Shown here: positions 2,168-58,876 of the stretch, one piece after another
How the letters are laid out: every line of letters begins with the position of its first letter
How positions within the stretch are numbered: the first letter of the stretch is position 1
Source: an uncultured Candidatus Saccharibacteria bacterium
GTDB taxonomy: Bacteria > Patescibacteriota > Minisyncoccia > Minisyncoccales > PEYH01
Reading direction: 5' to 3'
Length of the DNA stretch: 64,000 nt
Assembly (NCBI GenBank): GCA_964388775.1
Contig: CAYMBW010000001.1
Coordinates: 71,317-135,316 of the forward strand
Translations under genes and position numbers: made by a program
The notes under the pieces: generated by a model
Told to the model about the DNA's origin: nothing
Databases searched by the model: none
The model's input: only the letters and a program-made list of their open reading frames with translations

Positions 2168-3766
2168 ATGAGGAATAAATTTGACTCCAATCAAAAAAGT
2201 TTAAATACTGTGCCGGAATATCAGAGAGAAATAGAAAGATTACAAGAAGACCTAAATGAAGTTACTGCTTATTTGGGTGATTTCCTTTCTTTTTTGCCTT
2301 TGCCGATTTGCGATGTAAGCCCGGCTGGAATGATAAGCAACGTGAACAAGGCCTTTGAGAAATTAACCGGCTTTCGTTTCAGCGAGGCGGTGGGCGAATA
2401 TTTATCAAAGTTTTTTACAGAGCGAGGCGACGTTAATACCTGTCTCACAACATCGGAGAAAGATAATGTGGTACAGAACAAAGAATTATCTTTAGTCACC
2501 AAGGATAATAGGAAAGTATCGGTGAGCGTGTCTTTTGCGGCGAAACGCGATAACAGAGGAGAATTAATGGGTTATTTCGTAGGGGTTACAGACATTACTC
2601 TTCTGAAAGATTTGCAAACCAGAACAGAGGAAAAAATCAAGGTCAGAACAAAGGACTTAGAGAATTCGAGAACCGCTTTGCTCAATATGCTTGAGGACGC
2701 CGAAGTGGCTAAACAGCAAATAGAAAAGGAAAAAAATAGAAGTCAGGTAATTTTTAGCAATTTTATTGATGGGCTGCTGATATTTAATCCTAAAGGAGAA
2801 TTGGAGTTTTTAAACCCCCAAGCGGAGTATTTCTTAAAGATAAAACAAACAACCTTGATTGGGAGAACAACTAAGCAATTGGTTGAGTTGCCGGAAATGC
2901 GGGATTTAGCAAAAATGCTTGCAGATAGAAAGAAAGATATTTTTAGAAAAGAGCTTCCTTTTGAAAAGGGAGAATTAGTTGTGGAAGTCACAACCCAGAC
3001 ATTGAATCCCGGAGAAGAAGACGCATCGACTCTTGTAATCCTTCATGATATTTCAAGAGAGAAGGTCATAGAGCGCCTAAAAAGTCAGTTTGTTTCGGTA
3101 GCCGCTCATCAGCTCAGAACCCCATTGTCTATTATAAAATGGTCATTGTCTATGATTTTGGAAGAGGAAATGGGACCACTTAATTCTGAACAGAAAGAAA
3201 TGCTGTCTCGGGCGAATCAGACAAACGAAAGAATGATTCGATTGATTAATGATTTGTTAAATGTCGCCAGGATAGAAGAAGGAAGATTTATGTATCGCCC
3301 GACGATAATAGATTTAGGTGAATTTGTGGAATCAATCGTTATTTCGTTAAAACCATTAGCCCAGAAGAAGAAAATAAAGCTCGGTCTCAAAATATCCAAA
3401 ACTAAAGCGCCGAAAGTTATAAGAGCTGATATTGAAAAATTAAACTTGGCAATCAAGAATATCATTGAGAACGCCATATTCTATACTGATTCCGGGGGCA
3501 GCGTTGAAGTTTCTTTAAGCAGAAAAAAGGATGAGGTGGAATTGTCTGTTAAGGACAATGGAATTGGTATTCCGAAAGACCAACTGGACAGAGTGTTCGC
3601 TAAATTTTTCAGAGCCGATAATGCCGTAAGGAAAGAGACCGAGGGCACGGGCTTGGGTTTGTTTATCGCCAAGAATGTTGTAGAAGCCCATAGGGGCAAG
3701 ATTTCGTTTGTTTCAGAAGAAAAAAAAGGCACGACCTTTACTATCTCTTTGCCGGCCATAGGGTGA
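2168..3766 (+). CDS. PAS-domain sensor histidine kinase
   Basis: HisKA H-box AAHQLRTPLSIIKWSL, N/G boxes NIIENAIFYT...GTGLGLFIAKNVVEAHRGKISF (HATPase_c); upstream PAS-like segments and coiled coil. Confidence 0.85.
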   Translation: MRNKFDSNQKSLNTVPEYQREIERLQEDLNEVTAYLGDFLSFLPLPICDVSPAGMISNVNKAFEKLTGFRFSEAVGEYLSKFFTERGDVNTCLTTSEKDNVVQNKELSLVTKDNRKVSVSVSFAAKRDNRGELMGYFVGVTDITLLKDLQTRTEEKIKVRTKDLENSRTALLNMLEDAEVAKQQIEKEKNRSQVIFSNFIDGLLIFNPKGELEFLNPQAEYFLKIKQTTLIGRTTKQLVELPEMRDLAKMLADRKKDIFRKELPFEKGELVVEVTTQTLNPGEEDASTLVILHDISREKVIERLKSQFVSVAAHQLRTPLSIIKWSLSMILEEEMGPLNSEQKEMLSRANQTNERMIRLINDLLNVARIEEGRFMYRPTIIDLGEFVESIVISLKPLAQKKKIKLGLKISKTKAPKVIRADIEKLNLAIKNIIENAIFYTDSGGSVEVSLSRKKDEVELSVKDNGIGIPKDQLDRVFAKFFRADNAVRKETEGTGLGLFIAKNVVEAHRGKISFVSEEKKGTTFTISLPAIG

Positions 3767-3820
3767 GCGCTGGTAAAAATTAACCGTATATTGTATTATG
3801 AAAGATGGGAATTAACATTT

Positions 3821-3849
3821 GACAGGGACTACTGAAGAGTTAAAATGAT
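3821..3849 (+). promoter_or_regulatory. sigma70-like promoter upstream of receiver genes
   Basis: TTGACA, 16-nt spacer, TAAAAT; 25 nt upstream of the ATG at 3874. Confidence 0.3.
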
Positions 3850-3873
3850 AATATTATTAAATATCAAGAAATT

Positions 3874-4257
3874 ATGGCCAAAAAGATTTTAATTATAGAA
3901 GATGAAGAGCTGCTTTTAAATCTTTTAAAAAACAAGCTAAGCGAATTGGGCTACGAGGTTTTTACAGCCATCGATGGCTTGCAGGGGTTAGAGGGCATTA
4001 AGGAACTCGCGCCTGACTTAGTATTGCTGGATATAGTGATGCCCAAAATGGGGGGATTTGAAGTGTTGGAGAAAAAACAGGAGGATGATTCCATCAAAAA
4101 TATTCCCGTGATTATTATTTCCAATTCCGGCCAGCCGGTGGAATTAGAAAAGGCAAAACAGTTGGGCGTCAATGATTGGCTGGTGAAAACAGAGTTTGAC
4201 CCCATAGAAGTAGTGGAAAAGGTTATAAAACAAATCGGAGACAGTAACAATAATTAA
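3874..4257 (+). CDS. single-domain response regulator (CheY-like receiver)
   Basis: KILIIEDEELL...PDLVLLDIVMPKMGGFEVL...IIISN...K receiver signature; 127 aa, no output domain. Confidence 0.8.
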   Translation: MAKKILIIEDEELLLNLLKNKLSELGYEVFTAIDGLQGLEGIKELAPDLVLLDIVMPKMGGFEVLEKKQEDDSIKNIPVIIISNSGQPVELEKAKQLGVNDWLVKTEFDPIEVVEKVIKQIGDSNNN

Positions 4258-4274
4258 ATCGGCTAAGCAAAATT

Positions 4275-4670
4275 ATGCAGGAACATATTCTCATAGTAGA
4301 AGATGATAAATTCCTGAGAGAGCTCATATCAAGAAAGCTTTTAAACGAAGGGTTTAAAATAGATGAAGCGATAGACGGAGAAGAAGCTTTAAGAAAAATA
4401 GAGGAGGCAAAACCGGATTTGGTTTTGCTTGACCTTATCTTACCCGGCTTAGATGGTTTCGAGGTTTTGGAGAGAATAAAGGACAATCCGAGCACGAACA
4501 TAGTACCGGTGCTTATCCTTTCAAATTTGGGGCAGAGAGACGAGATTGAAAGAGGGCTGAAACTGGGAGCGGTTGATTTTTTGGTAAAGGCGCATTTTAC
4601 GCCCGAGGAAATAGTGGATAAAATTAAAACTATTTTCCAAAAAAAGCCCGTAACCGGCAAAAACGAATAA
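4275..4670 (+). CDS. single-domain response regulator (CheY-like receiver)
   Basis: HILIVEDDKFL...PDLVLLDLILPGLDGFEVL...LILSN receiver signature; 131 aa. Confidence 0.8.
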   Translation: MQEHILIVEDDKFLRELISRKLLNEGFKIDEAIDGEEALRKIEEAKPDLVLLDLILPGLDGFEVLERIKDNPSTNIVPVLILSNLGQRDEIERGLKLGAVDFLVKAHFTPEEIVDKIKTIFQKKPVTGKNE

Positions 4671-4682
4671 TTTTACGAGTTT

Positions 4683-5675
4683 TTGACAGGAGGAATTTCG
4701 AGAAAAGTCCCGAGCAAGGACTTTTCTTTGCGCAATATGCTTATTTTAATTTTTGGCAAAGATACATATAGAGGATGGCAAAAGCTTAAAGAGATAGTCG
4801 GCGATTTCGAGCAAGAGAACAATATTTCTTTGTCTTTGGATTCTTTGGAAAATGATACTTTTACAATAGAGGATTTGAAAAACGAATTAAGGCATGGCTC
4901 AATGTTTGAGAAAAAAAAGATAGTAGTTTTGAGGAACGGCTTTAGCAAGACGAACTTTAAAGAAGGGTTTATGAAAGAAATTAAAGGCCTATCAGGATAT
5001 AAAGATGCTTTAATGGTTTTTTATGAAGAAGGAGAGGCCTCAATAAATGCGGATTTTTTGAAACTTCTCAAGAAATACGGCGATGTTTACAAGTTCGATT
5101 TTTTAAAAGACAGCGACTTGAAAGAATGGGTTAAAAAAGAGTTATCTTTATTAGGGGCAAGGGTGAACCCGGATGCTCTGGCGTTATTAATTAATTCAAC
5201 GGGTGGCGACTTGTGGCGGTTATCAGCGGAGATTAAAAAACTTGTTGCCTATAAAGTGAGCGAGAAGAATATTGAGAAGAAAGACGTGGAGCTTTTAGTG
5301 AGGCCCAATGTTAATGCCGTGATTTTTAAAACCATTGATGCGATCGCCGCGGGAGACAAAAAAATCGCTCTTGATTTGATATATAGACATTTAGAAAAAG
5401 GCGATTCCCCGCTTTATCTCTTTTCAATGATAATATTTCAATTTAGAAATCTATTGGTTGTTAAAGAATTGGAGGAACGGTCTTTTGAAGAAAAAGTAAA
5501 AATTTTAAAACCTATGCGCCCTTTTGTGGTAAGAAAAAGCTCTTGGTTGGCGGGCAGGTTTTCTCTGAAGCAGCTACAAGACATCTATTTGAAAATTTTT
5601 AAGATGGATTTGGCGATTAAGAAGGGGAAAATAAAACCAGAGACAGCTCTGGAATTATTGGTTGCAGATATCTAA
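4683..5675 (+). CDS. holA: DNA polymerase III delta subunit; start probably the internal ATG near 4736
   Basis: Length and pattern (MLILIFGKDTY... C-terminal IDAIAAGDKKIALDLIYRHLEKGDSPLYLFSMIIFQFRNLL) typical of HolA; 5' end overlaps the preceding gene, so the start is uncertain. Confidence 0.65.
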   Translation: MTGGISRKVPSKDFSLRNMLILIFGKDTYRGWQKLKEIVGDFEQENNISLSLDSLENDTFTIEDLKNELRHGSMFEKKKIVVLRNGFSKTNFKEGFMKEIKGLSGYKDALMVFYEEGEASINADFLKLLKKYGDVYKFDFLKDSDLKEWVKKELSLLGARVNPDALALLINSTGGDLWRLSAEIKKLVAYKVSEKNIEKKDVELLVRPNVNAVIFKTIDAIAAGDKKIALDLIYRHLEKGDSPLYLFSMIIFQFRNLLVVKELEERSFEEKVKILKPMRPFVVRKSSWLAGRFSLKQLQDIYLKIFKMDLAIKKGKIKPETALELLVADI

Positions 5676-5716
5676 AAAGTGTTTGATTTCCGAAATCAGA
5701 CAATCTGATAAGTGTT

Positions 5717-5971
5717 TTATTTCAAAACCCGGGTAATGCTGGATTTTTTTCTGGCCGCCGTATTTTTCTTGATAACATTTTCTTTGGCCGCCTTGTCCAC
5801 CGCCTTATAATACTTAGAGAGCAGTTCGCGCGCTTCTTTTATTTTGTTTTCTTTTTGCAGAGCAAGGATTTGCTTTTGCAGTCCCTTAATGATTTTTTTG
5901 TAGCGCAAATTAGACGCTCTGTTTCGGCGCTCTTTTCTCAATGATTTAATGGCTGATTTTGTAATAGGCAT
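5717..5971 (-). CDS. rpsT: 30S ribosomal protein S20
   Basis: MPITKSAIKSLRKERRNRASNLRYKK...; ATG verified at 5969-5971 on the minus strand; the tool ORF carries a 5-aa upstream extension. Confidence 0.85.
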   Translation of the reverse strand: MPITKSAIKSLRKERRNRASNLRYKKIIKGLQKQILALQKENKIKEARELLSKYYKAVDKAAKENVIKKNTAARKKSSITRVLK

Positions 5972-6080
5972 GTTTCCTTTGGTCAAATTAAAAAATTAAA
6001 ATGAAAAATTAAGAATAAGAATAAAATATTTCTTGTGGTTAATACAATATCATACCCTTTATTTTTTTTCAAGCTTGAGC

Positions 6081-6118
6081 GGTTGAAAGCAAGCGGGGAA
6101 TAGGGAAATTAAATTTGA
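6081..6118 (+). repeat. promoter-like direct repeat, copy 1 (GTTGAAARCAAGCRGGRAATAGGG), upstream of the DGR
   Basis: About 30-nt core shared with 9375-9417 (4 mismatches); contains -35-like TTGAAA. Confidence 0.5.
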
Positions 6119-6126
6119 CTTTGTTT

Positions 6127-6162
6127 TGACAATGTGTTATGATGATGTTGTTATTATAATGA
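6127..6162 (+). promoter_or_regulatory. candidate promoter for the DGR target gene
   Basis: TTGACA followed 20-23 nt later by TATTATAAT; strong SD AAGGAGG 8 nt before the ATG at 6300. Confidence 0.3.
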
Positions 6163-6299
6163 AGTTCTTTGAAAAAAGAGGTTCAACCTTATGAGGCGAG
6201 TTCTTTGGGCGTCCCTCAAAAGGGATTTCTAAAGGTCTCGTCTCATAAAAGAGACAAGACGTTTATCCGAGCGAATCGGGTAAGCAAAACAAAAGGAGG

Positions 6300-7208
6300 A
6301 TGACGATGCCAAAAGCATTGATCACTAGCCGTGACGACAAAGGTCGTCATGCGGTCCACTTGTTCGAGATTGAGTATGACAAAGCAAGACTCGATGATGC
6401 ACGCGCGCAGCGGCTCAACGAGCGTGGAGGCGAACTCCAGGAAGGCATCGCAAAGCTCATCGCAGAGCTCTCGGTGTCCAACCGGTTCGCTGACGAGGAA
6501 ATGGAGTCGAGTTACACCTACCCAGGGGAGTACAAGGGGCCGAAGCCGATCGAGGAGCAGATCAAGGCAATCGCCAAGATCTTTGGACTTGACCCGAGTC
6601 AGGCGTTGGAATACGCCAAGAACTTGCCGGCGCTCCCCGAGGGTGCCGAAGGGTGGTTCGCAATCCCGTCGGTCGACGCACTTGCCAAGAGGCACTTCCC
6701 CGAAGTGACTGACCCGGTTGAGAAGTACTGCCGAGCTGTTCAGCTCGTTCACGCCAAGATCGCGGAATTTCGAACGTTCTGCAACTACCGCGAGGGGCAG
6801 ATCACACCTGACCACCTTCGGATGCATGCTCATACGGCACGCACACTCGAGCAGATCGCTGAGACGCAGAAGGGTGATATCCTAATCATCGCTGCTGAGC
6901 TCGGCATGAGGCACGGGAATCCGATTGCCCGCTCTGTTCGCAGAGCTCGTGAGGTTTTCATCGATAACGAGTTCGGCCTCGGATCAGTGGCAGGAGGATC
7001 CATCCTTCTGACTCATCCAGAGAGAGAGGTTCGATGGGAACAGCTTCACATGGTTCTTCCTGGCGATGAGTTTGCCCCGGGAGCCGGTGGCGATTTCTCG
7101 GGCGCGCCCTGCTTCTACTTCCACGACGGCAGGCTCGGGTTCGGCACGTACTGGCTCGACAATGCCAATCAGAACTATGGCTCGGCGTCCGGCTTTCTCC
7201 CGCAGTAG
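6300..7208 (+). CDS. DGR target (variable) protein with C-terminal variable repeat; no signal peptide; GC-rich relative to host
   Basis: Last 41 codons (AGGDFSGAPCFYFHDGRLGFGTYWLDNANQNYGSASGFLPQ) form the VR; gene is about 55-65% GC in a roughly 34% GC genome; SD AAGGAGG. Confidence 0.85.
   Translation: MTMPKALITSRDDKGRHAVHLFEIEYDKARLDDARAQRLNERGGELQEGIAKLIAELSVSNRFADEEMESSYTYPGEYKGPKPIEEQIKAIAKIFGLDPSQALEYAKNLPALPEGAEGWFAIPSVDALAKRHFPEVTDPVEKYCRAVQLVHAKIAEFRTFCNYREGQITPDHLRMHAHTARTLEQIAETQKGDILIIAAELGMRHGNPIARSVRRAREVFIDNEFGLGSVAGGSILLTHPEREVRWEQLHMVLPGDEFAPGAGGDFSGAPCFYFHDGRLGFGTYWLDNANQNYGSASGFLPQ
7083..7205 (+). repeat. DGR variable repeat (VR), 3' end of target gene
   Basis: 123 nt aligning with 7640-7762; 12 mismatches, every one at an A in the TR copy; identical GC-rich 3' end (IMH-like). 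Confidence 0.85.
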
Positions 7209-7282
7209 TACTTTGGACTCTTGGGACTTTTGAACCCTTTTGGGGGTTTGACTTCTTGTCTCGGGGGCTAACAAGACATCAA

Positions 7283-7325
7283 TGAGGGCTGTTCACCACG
7301 CATGACAGCCCTCACTCTTTTTTTA
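7283..7325 (+). terminator. rho-independent terminator after the target gene
   Basis: GAGGGCTGT-tcaccacgcatg-ACAGCCCTC followed by a T-run; preceded by a second hairpin TCTTGT-ctcgggggcta-ACAAGA (7252-7276). Confidence 0.6.
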
Positions 7326-7639
7326 TTTTCTAAACCTGATATACTGATAGACGAGTATAGGCTAATGTATGGCAGTTTACGCCCGCCTGCAGCGCTTTGC
7401 GCAGCAATGCGGGCAGGGATTGCTATCGCCGAACTCTCTCTTCAATAAAAAGAGATTAAACAACCAGAATCTTGACGACTACGGTTTTCAAGAGCGAGTT
7501 GTCTTGAGGAGATACTGCTTGCTCTTGTCTGGGGCAGATGCCTCGAGTTTATCGAGGGGCTGCTGCCGAATAAAATACAGGAAGAAAAGATTTTCTTAAC
7601 TTCCAGTGATATGGATGGACAAGGGCAAATTAACCGGAA

Positions 7640-7762
7640 GCCGATGGCGATTTCTCGAACGCGCCCTACTTCAACTTCAACGACGGCAAGCTCAAGTTCG
7701 ACACGAACTGGCTCGACAATGCCAATCAGAACTATGGCTCGGCGTCCGGCTTTCTCCCGAAG
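7640..7762 (+). repeat. DGR template repeat (TR)
   Basis: Encodes ADGDFSNAPYFNFNDGKLKFDTNWLDNANQNYGSASGFLPK in the VR frame; the variable codons are AAC, AAG, GAC, GAT and TAC; about 29 A residues, 12 substituted in the VR. Confidence 0.85.
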
Positions 7763-7765
7763 TCT

Positions 7766-7806
7766 CTTCTCAAAGAACAAAGAGTGTCTGTTTTAAGACA
7801 CTCTTT
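7766..7806. terminator. perfect 14-bp hairpin immediately 3' of the TR, also at the 3' end of avd on the minus strand
   Basis: AACAAAGAGTGTCT-gtttta-AGACACTCTTTGTT; possible bidirectional terminator or DGR structural element. Confidence 0.5.
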
Positions 7807-7815
7807 GTTTATCAG

Positions 7816-8166
7816 TTAATTATTCAAGGACCTTATCCAACCGCCGAGCATTCGGCCGATTTCATCAATTTCTTTTTCAATCAAGATATATTTTTTATTA
7901 TCCAATGCCTTTGTATCTTTTAATAAGCGCATAAATATGCGGAGCATATCAAGCATAGAATCAATATTTCTTAAATCTTTAAGTTTTTCATTTTTAGGAA
8001 GACGGCTTACTTTAAGAATGGACTCTATAATCTCAAGCAGGGCATCCTCTGTTTTTGCATATATCGTAAATCTGTCCTGTTTAGGAATCAGGTACCTGAA
8101 TTCATGAAGTAATTTGTATAATTCATACAACTTTTTGAAAATGGGGATTTCATCTTCAATATTCAT
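7816..8166 (-). CDS. avd: DGR accessory variability determinant (Avd-like four-helix-bundle protein)
   Basis: 116 aa; C-terminus EIDEIGRMLGGWIRSLNN and overall pattern match Bordetella bAvd / 23S-IVS four-helix-bundle family (EVGRILGSWIARVN). Confidence 0.75.
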   Translation of the reverse strand: MNIEDEIPIFKKLYELYKLLHEFRYLIPKQDRFTIYAKTEDALLEIIESILKVSRLPKNEKLKDLRNIDSMLDMLRIFMRLLKDTKALDNKKYILIEKEIDEIGRMLGGWIRSLNN

Positions 8167-8187
8167 TTCTTTTAATCTTAATTATAT

Positions 8188-9240
8188 ATGGACTTATTTA
8201 ATCAAATAATTTCTTTAGAGAATTTATTTTTGGCTTGGGATAAATTCAAGAAAGGAAAGGGGAATAAATTAGATGTCCAGGAATTTGAATTTAATCTTGA
8301 AAAGAATATATTCCAACTTCACAAGGATCTTAAAAATAGATGCTATATCCATTCGCCATATGAAAGTTTTTTTATTAAAGATCCGAAAAGAAGGAATATC
8401 CATAAGGCCACTGTCCGAGATCGTGTAGTCCATCATGCTATATTTGCGATAATTAACCCGATTTTTGAGCCGACCTTTATTTCCAATTCTTTCTCTTGTA
8501 GGGTTGGCAAGGGAAATCATAAAGGCGTAGATGCCCTCGCAAGAATGATAAGGAAAGCAAGTAATAATGGTTTTAAAAATTGTTTTATTCTTAAATGCGA
8601 TATTAAAAATTTTTTTGGAACAATTGACCATAGAATTTTATTAGACATTGTCCGCAAGCGGATAAAAGACGATGACTCAATGCGGCTCTTGGAAGAAATT
8701 ATTGAAAGTTTTTCTTCCCAATATTCAACTCTTTTTGAACGAAAAGGTTTGCCGATAGGCAATTTAACTTCTCAATTGTTTGCCAATATCTACCTTAATA
8801 AATTTGACCAATTTATTAAGCACAAATTAAGGATTAAGAATTATCTAAGATATACTGATGATTTTGTAATTTTATCAGGAGATAAAATCTATTTAGGAAA
8901 ACTTATCTCAACGATTAGTTTATTTCTCTCGGATAATCTTGCTCTTAAATTACATCCTAAAAAAGTTACAATTCGCAAATTTCATCAAGGGATAGATTTC
9001 CTTGGCTACATACTTCTGCCGCATTATCGTCTTCTGCGGGCGAAAACAAGACGGCGAATATTTAGAAAGATAGGGGAGCGAATTAGGGAATATAAAAATG
9101 GGACAATCAGTGAGCAGTCCCTCGTACAATCATTACAATCATATCTTGGCGTCCTATCACATGCTAATACATATGAGCTTGAACAAGAATTGAGAAATCA
9201 ATTTTGGTTTTGGCTCAATTCGGTTCCGTCAACCCGATAG
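8188..9240 (+). CDS. DGR reverse transcriptase
   Basis: RT motifs include the DGR-specific GLPIGNLTSQLFANIYL (I/LGxxxSQ) and YxDD box RYTDDFVIL; N-terminal LFLAWDKFKKGK. Confidence 0.9.
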   Translation: MDLFNQIISLENLFLAWDKFKKGKGNKLDVQEFEFNLEKNIFQLHKDLKNRCYIHSPYESFFIKDPKRRNIHKATVRDRVVHHAIFAIINPIFEPTFISNSFSCRVGKGNHKGVDALARMIRKASNNGFKNCFILKCDIKNFFGTIDHRILLDIVRKRIKDDDSMRLLEEIIESFSSQYSTLFERKGLPIGNLTSQLFANIYLNKFDQFIKHKLRIKNYLRYTDDFVILSGDKIYLGKLISTISLFLSDNLALKLHPKKVTIRKFHQGIDFLGYILLPHYRLLRAKTRRRIFRKIGERIREYKNGTISEQSLVQSLQSYLGVLSHANTYELEQELRNQFWFWLNSVPSTR

Positions 9241-9374
9241 TAAGCGATAGCACTCTTTCTATCCGTTCGTTCCATATGTTGCTACGCCACCTTGTTATGT
9301 GCGAGTCCTCTTTACATTGAGTGGAGCATAAAGTCAAATTTTGAAAATAATTGTTTGAAAATTATGGCGAGTGG

Positions 9375-9417
9375 GTAGTTGAAAACAAGCAGGAAATAGG
9401 GTAATATTAAAGTGGAT
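9375..9417 (+). promoter_or_regulatory. direct repeat copy 2 / sigma70-like promoter for the downstream toxin pair
   Basis: TTGAAA, 17 nt, TAATAT; homologous to 6081-6118. Confidence 0.45.
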
Positions 9418-9720
9418 ATGAAACAAATACCCCAATTTTTGCAGAAATATTTTTGGGATGTAGATTTTTTAACTCTAAATGTAAAACAGCATCCCCGATT
9501 TGTTATTGAGAGGATTTTAGAATACGGAGATAAAAAATCAATTAAATGGATGGAAGATAATTTTTCTTTAGGAGAAATTAAGAATACCCTTTTTATTTCT
9601 AAAAATCTTTCGCAAAAATCAGCCAATTTTTGGCAGCTTATTTTCGGCTTAGATAAAGATAAAATTCTATGCTTGAGGAAATCATTTCAAAAAAGACACA
9701 AAGCAATTTGGAGATATTAA
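9412..9720 (+). CDS. small protein upstream of nucleotidyltransferase, putative antitoxin partner (ATG at 9418)
   Basis: 102-aa ORF overlapping the next gene by about 50 nt in another frame (typical TA operon layout); no strong motif. Confidence 0.35.
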   Translation: MDMKQIPQFLQKYFWDVDFLTLNVKQHPRFVIERILEYGDKKSIKWMEDNFSLGEIKNTLFISKNLSQKSANFWQLIFGLDKDKILCLRKSFQKRHKAIWRY

Positions 9721-10283
9721 TAAAATCAGACATAATTGCCGATTTTTATCTTGCCGGCGGGACAGGGTTGGCTTTATATTTAAACCATCGCCTTTCCGTT
9801 GATTTAGATTTTTTTAGCAAAAAAGAATTTGATAATAAATCCCTGCTTCAAGAGATTAAAAAAATAGGCAAATTTTCAATCGGGAAAGAGTCGGAGAATA
9901 CTTTAGCGGGTGTTTTTAATGATACAAAAATCGCTTTTTTGACATACGATTATCCTCTTCTTTTTCCATTAAAAAAAATTAGAAATATTAACGTTGCCGA
10001 TATCAAAGACATTGCTTGTATGAAAATCTCCGCGATTTCTTCGCGGGGCAGTAAAAAAGATTTTATTGATTTATACTTTATTTGCCAGCAGGGCATTTCA
10101 TTAAAACAGGTATTAATGCTGTTTGGAAGAAAATACAGGGGCATTGATTATAATATGATGCATATTTTGAAAAGTTTGGTCTTTTTTAATGACGCCGATA
10201 GCGACCCTATGCCAAAAATGTTGGTTCCTGTTACTTGGGAACAGGTCAAGAAATTTTTTCAAGGAAAAGTAAAAACAAATTAA
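9669..10283 (+). CDS. nucleotidyltransferase of AbiEii/DUF1814-like toxin family (tentative)
   Basis: FYLAGGTGLALYLNHRLSVDLDFF matches the GGTAL...HRxSxDLDF nucleotidyltransferase signature. Confidence 0.5.
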   Translation: MLEEIISKKTQSNLEILIKSDIIADFYLAGGTGLALYLNHRLSVDLDFFSKKEFDNKSLLQEIKKIGKFSIGKESENTLAGVFNDTKIAFLTYDYPLLFPLKKIRNINVADIKDIACMKISAISSRGSKKDFIDLYFICQQGISLKQVLMLFGRKYRGIDYNMMHILKSLVFFNDADSDPMPKMLVPVTWEQVKKFFQGKVKTN

Positions 10284-10852
10284 TGATTTCTTTTATCAGA
10301 GGCAATATCAGAGCGAAAAATGAGGAATTTGTTATTGTCGAAAACAATGATATTGGTTTTAAGGTTTTTGTTTCTCCCAAGACCCTGGAAAAATTGAGTA
10401 TAGGAGAGACCGTAGAATTTTTTATCTTTTTTGCCATTCGCAACGAAAAACCGGAATTATATGGTTCCTTAAGCCAGGAAGAACTGAAAGTTTTTGAAAT
10501 AATAGAAAAAGTTTCCGGGGTCGGCCCCAAAGGAGCGATGCTTATTGCTTCATTGGGGACATTTGACGAGCTTAAAAAAGCGATAGAAATTCAAGATTTC
10601 GAATTTTTTTCCAAGATTAAAGGAATTGGGAAGAAAAAAATCCAAAAGATTATTTTAGAATTAGGCGGGACCATAAGAAGGATTGAAGAAATTGGAAACA
10701 AAGACCTTCAAAACGACGAAGCGTTTAAAGGATTGCTGGCATTAGGGTTTTCTTCCAAGGAAGCGGGAAAGGCGCTGGATAATGTTCCAAAGGATGTAAA
10801 AGACGCAAGCCAAAGGGTTCAGCAGGCCTTAAGGCGCTTCACAAAAAAATGA
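10283..10852 (+). CDS. ruvA: Holliday junction branch migration protein RuvA
   Basis: MISFIRGNI... OB fold, HhH motifs GVGPKGAMLIAS and IKGIGKKKIQKIILEL; ATG at 10283. Confidence 0.85.
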   Translation: MISFIRGNIRAKNEEFVIVENNDIGFKVFVSPKTLEKLSIGETVEFFIFFAIRNEKPELYGSLSQEELKVFEIIEKVSGVGPKGAMLIASLGTFDELKKAIEIQDFEFFSKIKGIGKKKIQKIILELGGTIRRIEEIGNKDLQNDEAFKGLLALGFSSKEAGKALDNVPKDVKDASQRVQQALRRFTKK

Positions 10853-16024: not shown

Positions 16025-16096
16025 GTCCCTGTGGTTCAACGGATAAAACACCTCCCTCCGGAGGAGGAAATGGCTGTTCGAATCAGCCCAGGGACA
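16025..16096 (+). tRNA. tRNA-Arg (anticodon CCG)
   Basis: Hand-folded cloverleaf: acceptor GTCCCTG/CAGGGAC, anticodon stem CCTCC/GGAGG with loop CTCCGGA, T-arm GGCTG-TTCGAAT-CAGCC, discriminator A; CCA not encoded. Confidence 0.7.
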
Positions 16097-16278
16097 CAAA
16101 AGTCCATGGGAGGAAGCATGGAGGGAAGTCCGACTTCCCCCTTTCCCTCGGAATAATTAACCTACAAATCATACTTGATTTTGGTCAGAAATTAAATGAC
16201 TTAACCAATGCCCCTATGTGCCCTTATGGTTAGATTTTAGATGATTCAATGCGAGGCATCGCAAGAATAGAGATTTTT

Positions 16279-24470: not shown

Positions 24471-24491
24471 ACTTTTATAATTATTTATTTT

Positions 24492-24870
24492 AGTGGAGAT
24501 GGCGGGATTTGAACCCGCGTATGGGAAGGCGTTTGAATTGTTTCTACAAGCTTACCTTGATTAATGTTGTCGGTCAGAGGCCTTGAATCAAGGGAAACAG
24601 CTTCTGGCTTAGGCCTAATTTTGGCAATTCTTTTCGGCCAACGAAGAATCGCTTATCTCGATAAATTACACCCGTTTTGCTTATCGAGAGTCCGCAAAAC
24701 AGATGGGCGTTGATTATTGCTAATCAAGCGCCGACCGTGGCGTTATGCATAAGCATAAGCCGGTCTTTGAAATAAGTTGGCACTTATTTGATTCTTGGAA
24801 GTTTAGCCAGATTCCAAGAGCTGGGCTTGCGCAATTCATCAGCTGTTTCCTATCGATGCCTTTCACCCCC
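24492..24870 (-). ncRNA. ssrA: tmRNA (SsrA)
   Basis: 5' GGGGGTGAAAGGCATCG..., 3' tRNA-like end GGGTTCAAATCCCGCCATCTCCAC; candidate tag frame GCC AAC TTA TTT CAA AGA CCG GCT TAT GCT TAT GCA TAA (ANLFQRPAYAYA); adjacent to smpB. Confidence 0.7.
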
Positions 24871-58717: not shown

Positions 58718-58792
58718 TGGTTTCTCTATTTTTAACTTTTCATTTTTAACTTTTAATTTGAGCGAAGTTCGCCCAAGGCGGACAAGCGATTG

Positions 58793-58876
58793 TGCCGGAG
58801 GAGGGAATCGAACCCACAAGTCCTTGCGGACAATGGATTTTGAATCCATCGTGTTTACCTATTTCACCACTCCGGC
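58793..58876 (-). tRNA. tRNA-Leu (anticodon CAA)
   Basis: Minus strand reads GCCGGAGTGGTGAAATAGGTAAACACGATGGATTCAAAATCCATTGTCCGCAAGGACTTGTGGGTTCGATTCCCTCCTCCGGCA: 7-bp acceptor, long variable arm, T-loop TTCGATT, anticodon loop TTCAAAA. Confidence 0.8.

Follow-up and report, generated by a model that had tools for sequence, protein, structure and literature searches.

Layout of the cassette

The DNA analysed here is a 64-kb stretch of contig CAYMBW010000001.1 from an uncultured Candidatus Saccharibacteria bacterium (hereafter the window). Near its left end it carries a diversity-generating retroelement (DGR). The cassette comprises a target gene (6300-7208, plus strand) that ends in a variable repeat (VR), an intergenic template repeat (TR), the accessory gene avd (7816-8166, minus strand) and a reverse transcriptase (RT) gene (8188-9240, plus strand). 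The initial annotation of this DNA had claimed a complete DGR with these four parts, and all four were found. The element is active. It can be assigned with high confidence, as an active chromosomal DGR, to the type found in Patescibacteria (Candidate Phyla Radiation, CPR), with the architecture TR-(avd)-RT ('B3').

Template and variable repeats

The repeat pair is 130 nt long, with VR at 7077-7206 and TR at 7634-7763 (both on the plus strand; offset 557, 90% identity). The pair reported in the initial annotation is real; its length had been given as 123 nt. The repeat and open reading frame (ORF) coordinates confirm that VR lies at the 3' end of the target ORF, of which it makes up the last 43 codons. 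TR is intergenic and lies 430 nt farther downstream. It has no partner other than VR within the window, and no paralogue of the target or of RT is found there.

TR and VR differ at 13 of 130 positions, and TR has A at all 13. In VR these positions are occupied by G (nine times), T (twice) or C (twice). There are 31 A among the 130 nt of TR; the probability that all mismatches fall on A by chance is (31/130)^13, or about 8e-9. The mismatches alter 11 codons, one more than the ten counted previously, and affect codon position 1 or 2 only.

The ends of TR and VR share the GC-rich sequence GGCTCGGCGTCCGGCTTTCTCCCG; beyond it, VR continues with CAGTAGTAC and TR with AAGTCTCTT. An IMH (initiation of mutagenic homing) element at the VR end that differs from its counterpart (IMH*) at the TR end is a feature of DGRs and is present here. 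The last TR/VR mismatch (7760 in TR, 7203 in VR) is probably a fixed IMH/IMH* difference and not a product of mutagenesis.

Variation among alleles of one strain

Four other assemblies of the strain (L001, L085, L086 and L087) were compared with the window over 7.3-7.9 kb each, and show 12-14 VR differences from it. L001, a 52-kb JGI contig that ends at window position 7299, shows 13 differences over 7299 nt. All lie within 7093-7173, and 12 of the 13 are at TR adenines. L085, L086 and L087 span window positions 2806-10708 and differ from the window at 12, 12 and 15 positions, respectively. All of their VR differences are at TR adenines and their sole difference outside VR is a single-nucleotide polymorphism at 3714; the RNA region upstream of TR, avd and RT are unchanged. 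TR is invariant in the strain assemblies that reach it.

When the five DNA alleles are pooled, 22 VR positions are variable (7087-7173), and 21 of these are at TR adenines. The flanks are near-identical. The initial annotation had proposed comparison with related genomes as a check for variation restricted to VR, and the cassette passes this check: adenine-directed variation confined to VR among otherwise identical genomes, a further DGR feature, is observed directly.

The same pattern is seen in the protein. A 90%-identity cluster contains ten sequences, drawn from JGI, ENA, Logan and NCBI assemblies, which are identical over residues 1-259. Seventeen residues are variable. All are located in 263-292, and 16 of the 17 fall in adenine-containing TR codons. 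Several alleles have the 5' half of VR in common and differ in the 3' half alone. Retrohoming of Bordetella phage BPP-1 has a variable 5' crossover, and the alleles with a common 5' half fit this known behaviour.

It is very improbable that the cassette is a relic in which the TR/VR differences are old and mutagenesis of the target has ceased. Some related loci do have an eroded appearance: the target homologue of L003 has no RT within 8 kb, a changed C-terminus and no array of the YTTGR motifs that follow VR in the window (described below), and in L024 avd is truncated and TR is missing. In the window, however, all ORFs are intact. The five DNA and ten protein alleles differ in VR only, at TR adenines, with 0-1 differences in the flanks; the relic explanation is already contradicted by these comparisons.

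Reverse transcriptase and Avd

The RT (350 aa) matches RVT_1 and contains both motifs named in the initial annotation, LPIGNLTSQ and YxDD (as YTDD). RTs of the DGR type have [I/L/V]GxxxSQ in motif 4 together with YxDD, and are nearer to DGR RTs than to those of group II introns or retrons; the motifs and scores of this RT agree with both. Among solved structures its top match is a 328-residue 'Reverse transcriptase' (entries 8ub7-8ube; E 2e-42, 149 bits), while group II intron RTs reach 94 bits at most.

Avd (116 aa) passes the curated cut-off of the Pfam model bAvd (PF22296; 69.1 vs 40 bits, 5e-19) and that of the NCBIfam equivalog DivGenRetAVD (NF033474; 86 bits, cut-off 80). An accessory Avd protein, another feature of DGRs, is therefore present, and the Avd-like ORF with EIGRMLGGWIRSL in the initial annotation is genuine. 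Its strand has to be corrected: avd is on the minus strand, divergent from RT, and the two genes lie head-to-head with 21 nt between their start codons.

An RT of this kind could in principle belong to a group II intron, a retron or a defence system, with the repeat pair a coincidence. The best NCBIfam match is indeed the group II RT/maturase model (TIGR04416, 161 bits), and there are weaker matches to Drt and retron models. The 161 bits are far under the curated cut-off of 300, however; the retron model reaches 64 bits against a cut-off of 235, and the Drt models are also far under theirs. A group II intron would have flanking intron RNA domains and an RT/maturase above the cut-off; a retron would have msr/msd RNA beside a retron-type RT. 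Neither set of features was found. No Rfam group II, retron or RT-associated RNA (RT-1 to RT-19 included) matches in 6050-9450 at E up to 10, and no Rfam intron family matches in the window. In addition, an Avd equivalog adjoins the RT, and the 8ub7 RT is the best solved-structure match. This explanation, which accounts neither for the restriction of TR/VR differences to A nor for that of strain variation to VR, is exceedingly improbable.

DGR class and relatives

A search with the RT, using one genome per species, returned 80 loci, almost all in Patescibacteria. Identity of the window RT to those of the 80 cassettes is 45-71%, and a range of 61-71% was obtained with RTs from other Patescibacteria DGR cassettes. 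In nearly all 80, avd is located upstream of RT on the opposite strand. DGRs of Patescibacteria have been known since 2017.

The window cassette has TR on the plus strand, avd on the minus strand and RT on the plus strand. This TR-(avd)-RT order is the published B3 layout; consequently, the cassette belongs to a described class. B3 makes up 90% of the CPR collection of Wu et al. 2018 (PMC5758913), and a DGR clade restricted to Patescibacteria (clade 2) has targets without membrane or known domains (Roux et al. 2021, PMC8144416). The window cassette shares with these DGRs its gene order, strands and host group, and a target that has neither a known domain nor a membrane anchor. It differs from them in nothing essential and is a member.

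The DGR of BPP-1 (mtd-avd-TR-brt) is a more distant point of comparison. Both systems have an RT plus Avd and show adenine-specific transfer from TR to VR. Both have VR at the C-terminus of a protein, which in BPP-1 has the C-type-lectin fold and in the window resembles this fold weakly, in a model only. Unlike BPP-1, the window element resides in a cellular host and not in a phage, and its target is not a tail fibre.

Gene arrangement varies among the relatives. In L004, a Pacebacteria metagenome-assembled genome, TR is on the RT strand with avd between them, and the target is oriented the opposite way. The whole L004 cassette (5947-8900; RT, avd, TR and target) lies between rpsJ and rplC in the S10 ribosomal-protein operon. 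The target adjoins rpsT in the window and in L002. Ribosomal protein genes have been noted inside CPR DGRs (Wu et al., PMC5758913). L026, L069 and L071 have one TR and two VR-bearing targets, with a separate YTTGR array behind every VR.

In ten related cassettes (L067, L069, L070, L071, L072, L073, L076, L077, L080 and L081) the RT frame is broken by an insert just before GxPIGNLTSQ. Examples are L067 ~4531-4627, L071 ~4522-4635 and L076 ~4528-4573. The inserts hold a simple repeat: (GA)6-16 with a hairpin in some, a G7 tract in others. RT expression in these cassettes may therefore be phase-variable or dependent on slippage. The window RT has no such insert.

Target gene and protein

The target protein (302 aa) belongs to a CPR-specific family with >2000 CPR homologues. 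Inspection by eye revealed no signal peptide or transmembrane segment. No match was found in Pfam or NCBIfam, or in PDB by sequence and profile searches. By our own reading of the sequences, the target is more conserved between two genomes than ribosomal protein S20.

An AlphaFold2 (AF2) model of the target was built with homologues from a search seeded with a divergent member of the family; 119 close homologues alone gave a predicted local distance difference test (pLDDT) score of 60. The C-terminal part of the model aligns, with weak resemblance, to TvpA (2y3c), Mtd (1yu0), TaqVP (5vf4) and FGE/C-type lectins. Foldseek searches with the model against PDB and BFVD found nothing. Like the DGR variable proteins TvpA, Mtd and TaqVP, the target has its VR at the extreme C-terminus.

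The gene is GC-rich (58% GC; 68% GC at third codon positions, GC3) in a window of 39% GC. Its neighbours in the window, avd and RT included, have a GC3 of 25-48%, with avd and RT at 30-34%. Target homologues in L002 (8001-8978), L003 (8001-8900) and L004 (8001-8900) have a GC3 of 78-81%, and their synonymous divergence (dS) from the window gene exceeds 1. Averaged over 40 related loci, the target stretch has 50-54% GC, the background 40%, and RT and avd 35%. Target genes are 10-20 GC points above their genomes, and the avd and RT beside them do not exceed genome GC.

Recent horizontal transfer was considered as a sufficient cause of the GC-rich target and rejected. GC3 stays at 68-81% although dS exceeds 1, avd and RT remain at 30-34%, and the average over the 40 loci shows the pattern too; recent transfer is therefore insufficient.

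Several signals surround the gene. A promoter-like site (6115-6143, plus strand) reads TTGACT-17-TATGAT with TG before the second hexamer, and matches the consensus at 10 of 12 positions; the assignment is a consensus match only. The predicted mRNA leader (6150-6299, plus strand) is structured, folding with -61 kcal/mol (z = -7.3; none of 200 shuffles is as stable). It is followed by the conserved block AAGGAGGATGACGATG, which contains the Shine-Dalgarno sequence plus start codon. This block is conserved in eight loci; the long hairpins in related leaders vary in sequence. Downstream of the gene, an inverted repeat read from the sequence forms a terminator-like hairpin (7284-7325, plus strand; GAGGGCTGT/ACAGCCCTC followed by a T run).

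A structured RNA upstream of TR

The 280 nt before TR align better between the window and L004 than the proteins do. An RNA alignment was made from 25 loci that represent two target families. RNAalifold places 56 pairs in eight helices, and compensatory changes are found in 48 of the 56. In this alignment 95.8% of cells are paired; column shuffles give 72% (0/500 reach the observed value), and sliding the partners by 1-3 columns gives at most 48%. The covariation score is 0.74, compared with 0.27 for shuffles and at most 0.17 for slid partners. This non-coding 5' domain of the DGR RNA occupies 7353-7632 on the plus strand. A mechanically called ORF at 7369-7599 was rejected as a gene, because its alignment has the indels and compensatory pairs of an RNA.

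A covariance model (R1) was built from the 3' half of the RNA, with 147 positions. R1 has one match in the window (7503-7630, 114.6 bits) and matches in 53 related loci, 27 of which are outside the set used for model building. In all but one, the match is on the RT strand, ~550-700 nt upstream of RT. L030 is the sole locus where the 5' RNA domain is opposite to the RT strand and farther away (2185-2337, minus strand). The domain appears to be an unrecorded RNA family, found in at least 53 related cassettes.

Transcription of the RNA is predicted to start near 7353, downstream of a -10-like hexamer, TATACT (7340-7345, plus strand). Related loci have TATACT, TATAAT or TATATA at the same place, several with a TTGCAA or TTCACT -35. 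TR is followed by a hairpin (7779-7806, plus strand; AAAGAGTGTC/GACACTCTTT, then TTTGTTTAT) with a T-rich tail. Across related loci, compensatory changes maintain pairing in its stem. The hairpin probably terminates transcription in both directions, that of the TR RNA and that of avd. It is also a candidate Avd-binding stem-loop by analogy, since a published survey of other DGRs describes such stem-loops just downstream of TRs. The positions of these signals suggest a discrete DGR RNA of ~450 nt that would span 7353-7806 and comprise the 5' domain, TR and the terminal hairpin.

A structured DGR RNA with a proposed priming role has a precedent in the Rfam RT-10 motif, an RNA located between TR and brt in BPP-1 (Weinberg et al. 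2017, PMC5737381). No Rfam family matches 6050-9450 at E up to 10, and the RNA found here has the opposite position relative to TR. In the DGR literature searched, which did not cover Paul et al. 2017, there is no description of the covarying 5' RNA, of the pairing and the array discussed below, or of GC-rich targets.

Proposed priming and retrohoming

From established DGR biology, RT and Avd would reverse-transcribe the TR RNA, misincorporating opposite adenines, and the complementary DNA (cDNA) would replace VR. Of the 31 TR adenines, 29 are upstream of the predicted cDNA start at C7758. If these 29 are copied, up to ~20 codons could be rewritten, giving roughly 10^17 DNA variants. A conserved CPR protein, apparently cytoplasmic, would carry the rewritten codons on a C-type-lectin-like surface.

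The RNA contains a candidate for the primer. A conserved unpaired stretch, SS5 (7505-7520, plus strand; UGAGGAGAUACUGCUU), is complementary to 7759-7772, which is the TR 3' end plus the following ~10 bases; the pairing strand is 7505-7518. Its counterpart in the other target family is AGAGAUAGAACUUCUU. The SS5:TR-3' duplex has -13.1 kcal/mol in the window, a value reached by 3 of 300 shuffles. A duplex of similar strength is present in 24 of 25 loci, and in 23 of them it has between -10 and -15 kcal/mol. The mean is -12.0 for cognate pairs and -9.05 for cross-group pairs. The duplex contains 1-2 internal mismatches. A12, U14, C16, U17 and U18 of SS5 are invariant over the 25 loci.

Downstream of SS5, 1-2 invariant U lead into helix P5, which has its 5' strand at 7520-7529. 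The other P5 strand (7618-7628 in the window) ends 5-10 nt before TR. The SS5 duplex and P5 are adjacent on one continuous strand; consequently, TR is looped out between them. Helix P6 and an invariant A-rich CGAAUAAAAUACAG (7567-7580) lie downstream of P5.

This arrangement resembles the BPP-1 RNA as seen by cryo-electron microscopy (Handa et al., bioRxiv 10.1101/2023.10.23.563531). There, Sp47-56 pairs with TR117-129 and A56 is the priming nucleotide. Two nucleotides later, Sp59-70 forms a duplex with the stretch immediately before TR, and a stem-loop and adenosines follow. The topology of template:primer and cPRT-stop duplexes is alike, with two adjacent duplexes and TR looped out between them (as deduced for the window), and both RNAs have a hairpin just after TR. 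In contrast to BPP-1, where the continuous strand is 3' of TR in a 140-nt spacer, the window has it 5' of TR, as it has most of its functional RNA (~280 nt). With less certainty, and by analogy, the RNA core may be a circularly permuted form of its counterpart in the Bordetella phage DGR.

By the same analogy, SS5 would act as a cis-primer strand with priming at C7518. The cDNA would start opposite C7758 and stop at P5. With this start, A7760 of TR is predicted never to be copied. The VR base that matches A7760 is C in 14 of 14 VRs of the window target family. Residue 302 is Q in 10 of 10 strain alleles, and TR encodes K; a constant Q302 is expected if A7760 is not copied. The VR bases past the predicted start (GCAGTA in the window, GAAGTTCT in the other target family) are a perfect complement of SS5, whereas TR has 1-2 mismatches there. 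From sequence, this match at the VR end could help to tell acceptor from donor.

Another reading of the same duplex, which we consider unlikely, is that SS5 is not a primer and that pairing with the TR 3' end only closes the TR loop in a structural or 'stop'-type role; the 5' RNA would itself be real. Priming would then take place elsewhere, for example in the region of the post-TR hairpin or on a read-through transcript antisense to avd, and the hairpin may let some transcripts through. The internal mismatches of the duplex fit this, as does the published survey of other DGRs, in which duplexes that join sequences up- and downstream of TR are cPRT-stop duplexes. SS5 as the primer is favoured by three observations: the strand order reproduces the primer/stop arrangement of BPP-1, the five SS5 nucleotides are invariant, and in both target families the point where TR and VR diverge coincides with the predicted start.

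The YTTGR array after VR

Directly after the target stop codon there is an array of six YTTGR motifs (7213-7259, plus strand), spaced 8-10 nt apart. The units are TTGG at 7213, TTGG at 7221, TTGA at 7230, TTGG at 7240, TTGA at 7248 and TTGT at 7256. Tandem Repeats Finder does not report the array, because its units are too degenerate.

A YTTGR array is found behind all 29 VRs of 25 related loci, with 3-8 motifs that are mostly CTTGA. The mean TTGR density after VRs is 3.97 per 75 nt (0.84 in shuffles), and the dominant spacing is 8 nt. No array of this type follows TR. In BPP-1, the IMH is followed by a GC-rich inverted repeat; the window has the YTTGR array in this place.

Two target homologues are found apart from a cassette, and neither RT nor TR lies within 5-8 kb of them. 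L002 (8001-9120) keeps the CAGTAG end and the YTTGR array, and may be served in trans. L003 (8001-9040) has lost both and has a changed C-terminus; it has probably decayed.

The array accompanies two unrelated targets which have only the RT, Avd and RNA in common, and it is therefore suspected to be an acceptor-site signal. As a candidate homing or recognition element, it would mark VR, and not TR, as the acceptor. As the main alternative, it is possible that the array is a 3' untranslated region (3'-UTR) element of the target mRNA without a role in homing, which would act on stability, translation or termination through an RNA-binding protein. With the stop codon before it and the terminator behind it, the array would be transcribed. 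Short repeats at fixed spacing are typical sites of ring-shaped RNA-binding proteins. A 3'-UTR role sits less well with the presence of the array after VR in two unrelated target families that share the same type of RT, Avd and RNA, and with its absence after TR and from the decayed orphan L003.

Taking the RNA and the array together, we tentatively propose that B3 DGRs use a circularly permuted RNA, with primer and 'stop' upstream of TR, and that the VR-end bases plus the array define the acceptor. Within this joint proposal, an array of ~5 or more CTTGA with an 8-nt period could be read by a pentameric Avd or another ring-shaped factor.

A number of points weigh against the interpretation given here. 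At 7105 (L001 10800) a C to T change (A269V) is a VR difference outside the TR adenines. It is present in 6 of 10 protein alleles and, being common to these, it is probably inherited and not recurrent. The RT of 8ub7 is presumed to be bRT of the Bordetella phage. Complementarity between SS5 and the VR end is 6-10 bp in most loci, and is weak in L019, L021 and L035. The VR end is under coding constraint (Q-stop or R-K-F-stop), so the SS5 match may be partly a by-product. Where the RNA begins and ends, which nucleotide primes and what the array does are predictions from sequence only. Finally, an earlier description of the RNA or the array may exist, Paul et al. 2017 being outside the literature searched.

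Cassette borders and neighbouring genes

The cassette is bracketed by an imperfect direct repeat. The left copy, GTTGAAAGCAAGCGGGGAATAGGG, is at 6082-6105 and the right copy at 9378-9401 (both on the plus strand). The repeat sequence GTTGAAARCAAGCNGGNAATAGGG has two matches in the window, with 0 expected by chance, and the end points of the initial annotation (6081 and 9417) coincide with it. The right copy overlaps a promoter-like TTGAAA-17-TAATAT before a DUF6922 gene. No comparable flanking repeat is present around the L004 cassette, and no empty site was found. The repeat could be the scar of an insertion, or could have arisen by duplication of a promoter.

Directly downstream of RT, the DUF6922 gene (9412-9720) overlaps an AbiEii nucleotidyltransferase toxin gene (9669-10283). 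The two form a type IV toxin-antitoxin or abortive-infection pair. Housekeeping RNAs in the window are a tmRNA (24491-24870, minus strand; tag ANLFQRPAYAYA), tRNA-Arg(CCG) (16025-16097, plus strand) and tRNA-Leu(CAA) (58792-58876, minus strand).

Significance

The cassette is a well-documented active example of a DGR and not a new system; its layout is common in Patescibacteria. It provides a clean natural experiment, in which at least nine VR alleles share 8 kb of sequence that is otherwise identical. As observations, the conserved RNA and the array are well founded, and the mechanistic reading is put forward as a hypothesis. It makes falsifiable proposals on how priming takes place without a spacer after TR and on how the cDNA finds VR. 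If the joint proposal on the RNA, the VR-end bases and the array is true, these elements would offer a first clue from sequence to how DGR cDNA is directed to VR and kept from TR. The target family, always GC-rich and with >2000 members, is among the commonest unexplained hypervariable proteins of the CPR.

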